Positions 44,616 to 47,512 of a stretch of 64,000 bases of DNA are shown piece by piece. Each line of letters begins with the position of its first letter. The first letter of the stretch is position 1. A program made the translations under genes and the position numbers. This DNA is from an uncultured delta proteobacterium (GTDB lineage: Bacteria > Desulfobacterota > Syntrophorhabdia > Syntrophorhabdales > WCHB1-27): the NCBI GenBank assembly GCA_963810935.1, contig CAWEPK010000007.1, positions 288,001 through 352,000 of the forward strand, read 5' to 3'. A model generated the notes under the pieces. That model made no database searches. It saw only the letters and a program-made list of their open reading frames with translations, and had not been told where the DNA came from.

Positions 44616-44825
44616 CCCATGTTGCCACCTTTCGCACGGCATTCCGTGATTCCCGAACCTTGCCCTCATGCAACCCTCGCAGGCGCACTATTTGCAACCC
44701 TCCGCCAATTCGTTTCACCGCTTTCTGATATAGCCACCCGTAGAATGAAATCTTTCTCACGGACTGCCCTTGACCAGGTGATGCCCAACATATAACCGCT
44801 CGCAGGCCGGAGAGGCGGCCACCCG

Positions 44826-45134
44826 CTATTTCGGGCCGGAGCCGTGCTCGCTCAGGTACTGCTTATATTCTCCGAGCAGCACGTGGGCGTACTCCGTGCG
44901 GGCGCGGCCCGACGATGGTATGAAGTTCTTGTTCGCTTCAAGCCTTTTGAGGATCTCCTCGCCCGTCTCGCGGTCCGCCTGCCTGCCTTCGGCGTGGAGG
45001 CCGGCCAGTATCTCGGTGAGGCCGTTGACGCGGACTTGCGAGCCATCGGGAAACTTCAGCATGCGCCAGCTAACTGCGGGCGCGTCGGACTCGTCCCCTC
45101 AGGTCATTCAGCCTATTTTTTCAAAAAGCGCCAT
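44826..45134 (-). CDS. Putative 102-aa selenoprotein with a UxxU motif (two in-frame TGA codons)
   Basis: AAGGAG RBS, ATG 45134, MALFEKIG-U-MT-U-GDESDAPAVSWR in frame with ORF 44826-45062. Confidence 0.72.
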
Positions 45135-45151
45135 GACTCTTCTTACTCCTT

Positions 45152-45514
45152 TTAGTTTTGACCGGCCGCGCAGCAAGCGGCGTCCGCGTCAGCCTTTGCC
45201 GCCATGAACGCGTCCAGCCTTTCGCGGTCGGACGCGACCTCCGCGTCACGGACCCTCTCTGCAATCGACAGGAAAAGGAGCCGCTTGAACAGGTCCGATT
45301 CGTTGAGGCGGTAGTGCATCCACTTGCCCTCGCGCCTGTCCTTGACCAGCCCGGCCTCTTTGAGTGCTTTTAGGTGGAAGGAAATCTTCGGCTGTGGCAT
45401 ATCGACTGCTGCCACGAGGTGGCAGACGCACAGCTCGCCGTTTTCCAGGAGCTTGACTATCCTGAGCCTCGTTTCATCCGACAATGCCTTGAACAAGGAC
45501 AGAAGCTCGTCCAT
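45152..45514 (-). CDS. arsR: ArsR/SmtB family metalloregulator
   Basis: 'FKALSDETRLRI', 'ELCVCHL', 'SFHLKALKEAGLV...EGKWMHY'; C-terminal CC. Confidence 0.9.
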   Translation of the reverse strand: MDELLSLFKALSDETRLRIVKLLENGELCVCHLVAAVDMPQPKISFHLKALKEAGLVKDRREGKWMHYRLNESDLFKRLLFLSIAERVRDAEVASDRERLDAFMAAKADADAACCAAGQN

Positions 45515-45655: not shown

Positions 45656-46777
45656 ATGAAAACTCATTGTGAGATAGAAACGCCCGCCGCGCAATCCTGC
45701 TGAGGGCCGAAGATGCGGACCCAGGCGGGTCCACCGCGAATGGAGCAGGTTTTTGTGACCGGCTCGATAGATACCGCTGCCGGCCCGGTGGCGCTGGTTT
45801 CGCACGTGTTCTCCCGGTCGGACCGCCTCGGGGCGTGGAAGTCCCGGTGGGGTATAGGCCGCATGGCCTATACCGTTGATCCCGGCCTGTACGCCGTAGG
45901 CGAGGCCCGTCCGGAATCGCCCGTTTTCGTCACGGCCAACTACAAGATGACCTTCGACCTCCTGCGGCGGGCCCTTGCAGGCATAGACGGCTGGATACTC
46001 GTGCTCGACACGAAAGGCATCAACGTCTGGTGCGCGGCGGGGAAGGGCACGTTCGGCACCGACGAGCTTGTGGGGCGCATCGAAGCGAGCGGTCTTGCCG
46101 GTGTGGTGACCCACAGGCAGGTTATAGTGCCGCAGCTAGGCGCGCCGGGCGTGTCGGCCTACGAGGTTAGGCGGCGCTCCGGGTTCAAGGTGGTCTACGG
46201 ACCCGTCCGGGCGGACGACCTGCCCGCTTTTCTGCATGGCGGCCTCAAAGCGACGGGCCGGATGCGGACGAAGGATTTCCCGCTCGCCGAAAGGCTCGCC
46301 CTGGTCCCTATGGAAGTCGTGCCTGCCGTAAAGTGGGGCATCGTCGCGGCTGCGGCGCTGTCTGTTCTATCATTTTTCATTTCCGGCTTCTCGCCGTCGA
46401 AGGCGGCGGGCTGGACACTGCTCGCCGGCGTTTGGCTCGGCTCGGCGGTCTTCGCGGGCGCCGTGCTCACGCCCGTGCTGCTGCCGTGGCTTCCAGGCAG
46501 GGCCTTTTCGACAAAGGGGCTCGGCCCTGGTCTTCTTTTCGGCCTTTGCGCTGCGCTGGTCGGCGGCGCGCTCCACAGCGGCGCGGCTGCGGTCCTCGCG
46601 GGTGTCGTCTTCATCCCGGCAATGGCTGCGTTTCTGGCGATGAACTTCACCGGCTCGTCAACGTTTACGTCGCTCTCCGGCGTCCGAAAGGAGATGCGCG
46701 TTGCCCTGCCGCTCGAGATTGCCGGCATGGCGTGCGGCCTTATTCTGTGGATTGCCGCCGTTGTAACGGGAGGATAA
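45656..46777 (+). CDS. hgcA: Mercury methylation corrinoid protein HgcA, with N-terminal Cys-Sec extension (TGA 45701-45703)
   Basis: Cap helix 'GINVWCAAGKG', 'TANYKMTFD', C-terminal TMs with 'NFTGSSTFTSLSGVRKEM'; upstream in-frame MKTHCEIETPAAQSC-U-GP. Confidence 0.95.
45717..45732 (+). other. Putative bacterial SECIS hairpin
   Basis: GGACCC-AGGC-GGGTCC, 13 nt after the in-frame TGA. Confidence 0.6.
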
Positions 46778-46784
46778 ATATCTT

Positions 46785-47074
46785 ATGCGCCCTTTGCTTT
46801 ACCTTGACGATGTAACCACCCTTACGTTCGACGAGACGAAGTGCACGGGCTGCGGTATGTGCCTCGTTGTCTGCCCGCGCGAGGTATTCCGGGCCTCCGA
46901 CGGCAAGGTCCAACTCGCCTCGCGCAACGCGTGCATGGAGTGCGGCGCGTGCAGGCGCAACTGCCCGAGCGGCGCCCTCGACGTAAGGGCGGGGGTCGGC
47001 TGCGCGGCGGGCATGATCAACCGGATGCTCGGCAGAAAGACGGCCTGCTGCGGAGTCGATGACGATAGCCGGAC

Positions 47075-47087
<13 letters not shown>
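46785..47087 (+). CDS. hgcB: Mercury methylation ferredoxin HgcB
   Basis: 'CTGCGMC..VCP', 'CMECGAC..NCP', 'GVGCA', C-terminal CC. Confidence 0.95.

Positions 47088-47512
<425 letters not shown>

Follow-up and report, generated by a model that had tools for sequence, protein, structure and literature searches.

A conserved gene with two in-frame TGA codons next to arsR, a candidate small UxxU selenoprotein of arsenic and mercury loci

The window, a stretch of 64,000 nucleotides from an uncultured delta proteobacterium, carries a small gene with two in-frame TGA codons directly downstream of arsR. This gene is real and conserved, and its pattern is far beyond chance. Comparison with related sequences supports a genuine small protein, probably read through two UGA codons that give a U-x-x-U motif. 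The features of the locus and of related proteins are collected in Table 1.

Table 1. Coordinates of the double-Sec gene, its neighbours in the window and the fusion proteins that share its folded domain
Feature	Position	Strand	Remarks
Double-Sec protein CDS	44826..45134	-	102 residues and TAG stop, if both TGAs are read as selenocysteine
Same CDS without stop, in the window's own genome (G000)	C7:332829-333134		
RBS AAGGAG	45146..45151	-	11 nt 5' of ATG
Start ATG of double-Sec gene	45134-45132	-	
First UGA (putative Sec 9)	45108..45110	-	TGA kept in homologues
Second UGA (putative Sec 12)	45099..45101	-	TGA kept in homologues
SECIS-type hairpin, within the CDS	45063..45083	-	Encodes A-P-A-V-S-W-R
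Folded C-terminal domain, residues about 23-102	44829..45068	-	Predicted from structure model and alignments
TAG stop of double-Sec gene	44828-44826	-	
arsR, ArsR/SmtB metalloregulator, E-L-C-V-C	45152..45514	-	NF033788, 105 bits; directly upstream, same strand
hgcA, divergent	45656..46777	+	NF040863, 433.6 bits (extended protein)
hgcB	46785..47087	+	NF040864, 115.9 bits, cut-off 99
arsC-like, low-molecular-weight phosphatase-type arsenate reductase	47075..47512	+	TIGR02691, 128 bits, below cut-off 174
Fusion protein	L038:1862-2359		
Fusion protein	L075:1738-2232		
Fusion protein	L077:2378-2887		
Fusion protein	L079:2314-2802		
Fusion protein	L081:2218-2718		

The frame begins M-A-L-F-E-K-I-G-TGA-M-T-TGA-G-D-E-S. 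Its two TGA codons stand at the spacing of a CxxC motif, with two codons between them, and they are the sole interruptions of the 102-codon frame. The upstream part joins the 78-aa ORF at 45062..44826 without an indel. A gap of 17 nt separates the stop of arsR (TAA, 45154-45152) from the ATG. A previous sequence-only reading of this DNA had given the gene these limits, with the same start, ribosome-binding site, TGA positions and uninterrupted junction, and the sequence confirms all of them.

We made a six-frame search of 61 related genomes, using the window protein with TGA read as Cys. Matches were found in 53 genomes; the loci and genomes are interrelated, so that this and the following counts are not independent. 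Exactly two in-frame TGAs are present in 53 of the 84 matches listed, which come from 49 of the 61 genomes. The rest of the 84 are stop-free paralogs or partial alignments. This conservation agrees with the small UxxU selenoprotein that the sequence-only reading had proposed. In a phylum-wide sample of 401 genomes, a profile search gave matches in 40, and 22 of the 54 matches listed had two TGAs. The Sec forms occur in at least eight family-level groups of the phylum (f1, f2, f3, f4, f14, f16, f34 and f50). The locus search with a single protein returned five loci, all from MAGs labelled uncultured deltaproteobacterial or Pseudomonadota.

From the fetched loci, we extracted 41 distinct Sec-type sequences. 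Two TGAs are present in 39 of them (33 UxxU, one Ux3U and five Ux4U). The other two have a single TGA, and one of these shows TTA as the first codon. The homologues keep the frame, the start and both TGAs, and a GGAGG-type RBS precedes the equivalent upstream start. Over the eight codons 5' of the first TGA, and over the two that separate the TGAs, the codons vary but still encode the same residues. Glycine uses all four GGN codons, and the codons for Ser, Leu and Thr also change.

Three single-Sec variants can be described. The one at L067:6001-6279 has the leucine codon TTA as its first Sec codon, and the one at L033 has one TGA. The copy on contig C46 of genome G427 (L064/L084) lies directly after an arsA-like ATPase gene and has Leu at the first Sec; its C-terminal part looks frameshifted. 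An alternative genetic code, with TGA as Trp, was rejected. The hgcB gene ends on TGA, the ORFs close under table 11, and Sec machinery is present.

A hairpin lies directly after the Sec motif, where the segment P-x-V-S/G-W/R-R/H is encoded in every Sec form. In the window, this hairpin presents 8-nt arms with one C.U mismatch and a 5-nt loop (AGUUA), and it starts 15 nt after the second TGA. The loop is 23 nt from the second UGA and 32 nt from the first. The energy of the 23-nt core is -12.7 kcal/mol. As far as the accessible part of PMC13188914 (Fig. 2) describes it, the bSECIS model has a loop of 3-9 nt, a stem of 4-16 bp and a G in the first two loop positions. The same figure gives a UGA-to-loop distance of 16-37 nt and an MFE of -7.5 kcal/mol or lower. 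In loop, stem, spacing and energy, the window hairpin falls within the model so described. By that energy value, 26 of the 41 core hairpins are at or below -7.5 and 15 are weaker, each core of 23 nt being folded alone. Across the 41 forms, the loop starts 17-23 nt from the second UGA and 26-32 nt from the first, and in 39 of them it reads AGUU(A/G). From this spacing, one SECIS hairpin may serve both UGAs.

The stem is conserved as a structure. In the 41 sequences (38 distinct), 87.6% of the cells of the 7-bp stem are paired, against at most 48% in controls with a slid partner. Its covariation score is 0.200, compared with 0.135 ± 0.014 after shuffling, and none of 500 shuffles was as high. 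The alignment of 19 sequences gives the same picture of the hairpin, covariation included. Two stem pairs swap between A-U and G-C (15/13 and 17/8). In one of them, base 3 of the Pro codon is paired with base 1 of the Trp/Arg codon; in the other, base 1 of the Ala/Thr codon is paired with base 3 of the Ser codon. Since the swapping pairs span codon positions, the RNA structure co-determines the amino acids.

The sequence-only reading had placed a small hairpin after each TGA, and this was correct for one of them. The hairpin after the second TGA is the conserved and covarying one, at SECIS distance from both TGAs. However, the hairpin after the first (GGA/UCC, 3 bp) is not conserved. Only 57% of its cells are paired in the 19 homologues, with no covariation and with 352 of 500 shuffles as high. 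An Rfam scan of positions 44700-45300 returned a chance snoRNA match alone (E 4.2); the hairpin is not modelled in Rfam. The Cys paralogs have neither the P-x-V-S-W-R segment nor the hairpin.

The genome of the window has most of the genes for selenocysteine insertion. There are three tRNA-Sec genes, a selA gene (568 bits) and two selD genes. One selD is a Cys-type copy on contig C8, and the other (C9:199342-200256) is a Sec form with one in-frame TGA. The Sec genes that the sequence-only reading had listed for checking are there, except that the single selB is split over three reading frames by two frameshifts (C5:224288-226169, locus L035). The search of 20 relatives gave a one-piece selB in 17, and the three genomes from the same genus are all among these. 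Either Sec insertion is broken in this organism or the assembly has indels, and assembly indels are the probable cause of the selB frameshifts.

Some other details of this machinery were observed. Another few-contig assembly, G004, is also without a one-piece selB match. The tRNA-Sec genes are at C4:30323-30414, C6:4921-5012 and C11:126664-126755 (L001-L003). Each lies about 118 nt from an ORF of about 200 aa that matches the C-terminal third of the double selenoprotein MbdU (NF045648). The trio of tRNA-Sec and MbdU-like ORFs may be a repeated unit, or may consist of strain or contamination copies (contamination 7%).

The AlphaFold2 model, built with 19 homologues, has a mean pLDDT of 75, with values of 78-89 over residues 21-90. 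Residues 1-19, which include both Sec positions, are predicted to be disordered. The predicted fold consists of a β-hairpin (23-27 and 33-37) followed by three helices. In the alignments, this domain conserves the motifs G-L and K-N-Y/F-I-P. Pfam and NCBIfam have no family for the window protein, for 14 further Sec forms or for five Cys paralogs. With E values up to 10, the Pfam scan of the window protein returned FecR alone (0.19). The best Foldseek match against the PDB had an E of 0.2, and PDB sequence profiles gave E values of 0.38 or more. The wide VIA-align search reached Z 4.9 at best, with homeodomain-like arrangements of three helices. None of these structure searches assigned a fold. 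Likewise, a protein atlas search with the Cys paralog P0017 gave no usable match.

The Cys paralogs are stop-free ORFs with CC, CCC or CPC at the matching N-terminal place. The sequence-only reading had named homologues with TGA or Cys at both positions as a check; the Sec forms keep TGA there. The spacing of the Cys paralogs is different, and they are not column-for-column orthologues of the Sec forms. In one locus (L030, G024:C21, 2075-4966), arsR and ACR3 are followed in tandem by a CC form, a Ux4U Sec form (with C-U) and a CPC form. A complex prediction for this ACR3 and the adjacent CC paralog scored 0.03, against a mark of 0.32, which is no evidence either way.

The folded domain is also the N-terminal half of proteins of about 165 aa (Table 1). 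Their C-terminal half is a thioredoxin of the MTH895/ArsE type with CxxC (TIGR00412 at 75-83 bits, G-C-x-x-C), and their N-terminal domain has no Pfam model. These fusions are found in ArsR-ArsP-ArsP-DGC operons. More than 100 fusion clusters lie below 1e-30 in the 50% library; the profile used (180 positions) included the thioredoxin half, so its 4798 matches are mostly fusions or thioredoxins and do not give the size of the Sec family. In the domain tree, which is poorly resolved (73 columns, 24 of 52 branches open), the thioredoxin fusions separate at 99/99 support, and the Ux3U and Ux4U forms are nested among the UxxU forms. The tree label "single Sec" on L060 is wrong; this sequence is a Cys form whose upstream TGA is a stop.

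The neighbours identified by profile (ArsR, HgcA, HgcB and an ArsC-like protein) bear out the ArsR-controlled arsenic/mercury setting that had been proposed for the window. ArsR-like control of hgcAB is already in print, according to the accessible part of bioRxiv 10.1101/2022.10.17.512643. The window ArsR has the As(III)-site motif E-L-C-V-C, and also an extra C-C pair near its C-terminus. The listed ORF of hgcA starts at 45713. Its upstream extension, from ATG 45656, contains an in-frame TGC-TGA at 45698-45703 (a C-U pair), and the alignment to the HgcA model NF040863 begins after this pair. A CU-type Sec form of HgcA is listed in PMC13188914 (Table 1), and the window hgcA fits it. The Sec-containing HgcA suggested earlier thus finds support.

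We surveyed 31 Sec-form loci within 1.5 kb on each side of the gene. An ACR3-type SBF permease is a neighbour in 13 loci and an ArsP_1 permease in three. A methyltransferase of the class that includes ArsM, assigned without an ArsM model, is present in four, and ArsR in two. At least one of these four (ACR3, ArsP, methyltransferase or ArsR) is present in 21 of the 31 loci, and the Sec gene is often directly downstream of the permease gene. On the other hand, an HgcA-type neighbour is found in one locus, the window's own. The idea of a selenium-rich arsenic/mercury module, put forward in the sequence-only reading, is weakened by these counts. The window's genome has only one member of the family. 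No high-scoring ACR3 is near the gene in that genome; it has three SBF matches of 98-120 bits, the nearest 44 kb away.

With moderate confidence, we take the protein to have an ArsD-like role: its diselenol arm would chelate As(III), MAs(III) or Hg(II), and the ion would be handed to or from partner proteins. The gene would be cotranscribed with arsR and translated from ATG 45134, and both UGAs would be decoded as selenocysteine by means of the single SECIS hairpin (45083..45063). The product would have a disordered N-terminal arm with a G-U-x-x-U diselenol, and a small folded domain. The arm might chelate a soft metalloid or metal, such as As(III) or methyl-As(III), and at the window locus perhaps Hg(II). 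The folded domain could dock on ars partners (an ACR3 or ArsP permease, a methyltransferase or ArsR), and through this docking the ion would be buffered or handed over. The protein would then do the job of ArsD with a different fold and with selenium.

We favour metal binding because of the adjacent cysteines of the paralogs, the variable Sec spacing, the disordered arm and the position beside efflux permeases. The single-Sec variant that directly follows an arsA-like ATPase gene is another point in its favour. Vicinal Cys pairs on flexible tails bind As(III) or Hg(II) and pass it on in ArsD, MerA and HgcB. With no high-scoring ACR3 beside the gene, the idea of a permease partner does not directly fit the window locus. 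More tentatively, we propose a family of selenium-based metalloid chaperones with a fold of their own, whose free diselenol arm might feed As(III), MAs(III) or Hg(II) to the secondary efflux permeases ACR3 and ArsP. In the window's genome, the arm would perhaps feed or shield HgcAB. This proposal also includes one SECIS that would recode two UGAs three to five codons apart and shape its own protein sequence (the Trp/Arg and Ala/Thr choices). We know of no chaperone for the secondary efflux permeases ACR3 and ArsP.

A UxxU pair is also able to form a diselenide. The motif might thus be a redox centre, and the protein a minimal selenium "thioredoxin" that alternates between the diselenide and diselenol states and is not a metalloid carrier. 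We consider this possible but doubtful. Its substrates could be the arsenate reductase (ArsC), As(V) or methyl-As(V) species, or As-thiol adducts. The UxxU spacing is that of CxxC redox centres, and proteins of ArsR-ArsP-DGC operons join the folded domain to MTH895/ArsE thioredoxin-like modules; these ArsE-type fusions would suit redox and binding roles alike. Genes for thioredoxin, DsbD-type and pyridine-nucleotide disulfide reductase proteins are found near some Sec forms (L017, L024, L038, L048 and L050). Across the divergent promoter of the window, there is an arsC of the thioredoxin-coupled type. Redox proteins make up most of the prokaryotic selenoproteins listed in PMC13188914 (section 7). 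However, the Cys paralogs have adjacent CC or CCC and not CxxC, and the spacing of the Sec pair varies (2, 3 or 4 residues), whereas a tuned redox motif would not usually vary in this way. Cysteines that are adjacent are good ligands for As/Hg but form poor redox disulfides. The arm is also predicted to be disordered and outside any thioredoxin fold.

An accessory regulator that senses metalloids seems improbable. In this reading, the protein would tune the divergent arsR and hgcAB-arsC promoters, with DNA or ArsR as the target of the three-helix domain and the diselenol arm as the sensor of As(III) or Hg(II). ArsD was first proposed as a regulator of a similar kind. The short distance from arsR and the promoter region of hgcAB-arsC, which the gene faces in the window, suit such a role, and there is a faint likeness to DNA-binding proteins (homeodomains at VIA Z 4.4-4.9; a PhoB/BaeR C-terminal domain at E 0.02-0.06 for one homologue). 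Nevertheless, all these similarities are sub-threshold, Z values below 8 are common for helical models, and no HTH family of Pfam or NCBIfam was matched. ArsR adjoins the gene in 2 of 31 loci, against 16 of 31 with a permease gene nearby. Still less probable, and very unlikely in our judgement, is that the TGAs are true stops. The product would then be the 78-aa ORF from ATG 45062, the 8-codon frame a leader or noise, and the hairpin an attenuator. Gene callers record truncated ORFs of 75-90 aa alone, the selB of this assembly is frameshifted, and an ATG is present between the last TGA and the domain in 20 of the 41 Sec forms. But it is absent there in the other 21, and in 12 the stretch after the TGAs is free of ATG, GTG and TTG, so a truncated ORF of the gene-caller type is impossible as the product in these 12. 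The interrupting codon is always TGA, with no TAA or TAG in the 22 codons 5' of the folded domain in any of the 41. The three segments keep one frame across the spacing variants, and the upstream peptide is conserved with synonymous changes behind an RBS. The ORFs of the Cys paralogs are unbroken, and CC stands at the matching place.

Compared with known systems, the metal-binding protein that we favour is closest in its presumed job to ArsD (PF06953). ArsD is likewise a small cytosolic protein of ars operons with closely spaced soft ligands and a proposed hand-over of As(III) to efflux. Its ligands are Cys12, Cys13 and Cys18, whereas those of the Sec protein would be two selenocysteines on a disordered N-terminal arm. 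The window protein has no PF06953 match at E values up to 10, and its predicted fold (a β-hairpin and three helices) differs from the thioredoxin fold. The usual neighbour of the Sec gene is ACR3 or ArsP and not ArsA, with one variant beside an arsA-like gene. Flexible terminal paired ligands, the CC tails of MerA, MerT and HgcB, take up Hg(II) and deliver it to an active site; the window HgcB ends with a C-C pair. In contrast to these tails, which are parts of larger enzymes, the Sec arm is on its own small carrier domain and would use Sec.

Among described selenoproteins, NF041115 is a UxxU metal-binding protein of the HMA type, given as "putative mercuric reductase" in the Olavius symbiont list (PMC13188914, Table 1). 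It is also small, has two Sec in UxxU and is presumed to bind Hg or other soft metals (PMC13188914, Table 1). However, it matched none of 15 Sec forms, its model finds HMA domains elsewhere in the window's genome and not at this gene, and the fold differs. The UxxU form of the FmdB family (TIGR02605) shares the small size, the two Sec and a start of the type M-x-hydrophobic-aromatic-E ... U-x-x-U-G (PMC13188914, Table 1). The Sec protein does not match it at E values up to 10, and has no second C/U-x-x-C/U pair, so no zinc-ribbon. The MTH895/ArsE (TIGR00412) fusions have a homologous folded domain, and both kinds of protein occur in ArsR-controlled permease operons. Unlike them, the Sec protein has no thioredoxin module (no Sec form matched), and its selenium pair would be on a short arm before the domain. 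The MbdU model NF045648 (468 positions) has seven partial matches elsewhere in the genome and none at C7:332829-333134, and no Sec form matched it.

The 2026 inventory lists 119 prokaryotic selenoprotein families (PMC13188914, Table 1). Its UxxU entries are Prx-like proteins, NF041115 and the FmdB family only, and its Ux4U entry is TsoB (PMC13188914, Table 1). None of these families with UxxU or Ux4U matches the Sec protein. Such a protein is absent from the accessible parts of a 2022 review and of the Haft and Gwadz preprint. A literature search gave no description of it; Haft and Tolstoy 2025 (PMC12013261) fell outside its coverage, and the NCBIfam models of that work given in PMC13188914 were unmatched. 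So, the earlier remark that no described family of this form was known stands against Pfam, NCBIfam and Table 1 of PMC13188914. The protein looks like an undescribed family within a known kind, the metal-related selenoproteins of bacteria, with an unusual double recoding.

This protein is cut short by gene callers everywhere, and annotations therefore miss a widespread component of anaerobic arsenic operons. Should the arm bind As(III) or Hg(II), there would be a selenium-dependent step in the handling of arsenic and mercury by soil and sediment anaerobes, mercury methylators included. In that case, the supply of selenium would be linked to arsenic tolerance, and possibly to the formation of methylmercury. 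The gene would also offer a clean natural case of one bacterial SECIS for two nearby UGAs, with an RNA structure that constrains the encoded protein.

The two TGAs were also looked for in sequencing data, as the sequence-only reading had proposed. Both are unchanged in the spanning contigs of three soil-metagenome runs of one study; these contigs may come from the window's own sample and give weak independent support. The runs listed for this stretch included no RNA run. Contigs of a second related strain (runs X1 and X2) show 12-14 differences in 148 nt over window positions 44845-44992. Below 44845 this strain diverges completely; strains of the same samples are thus unlike each other downstream of the gene.
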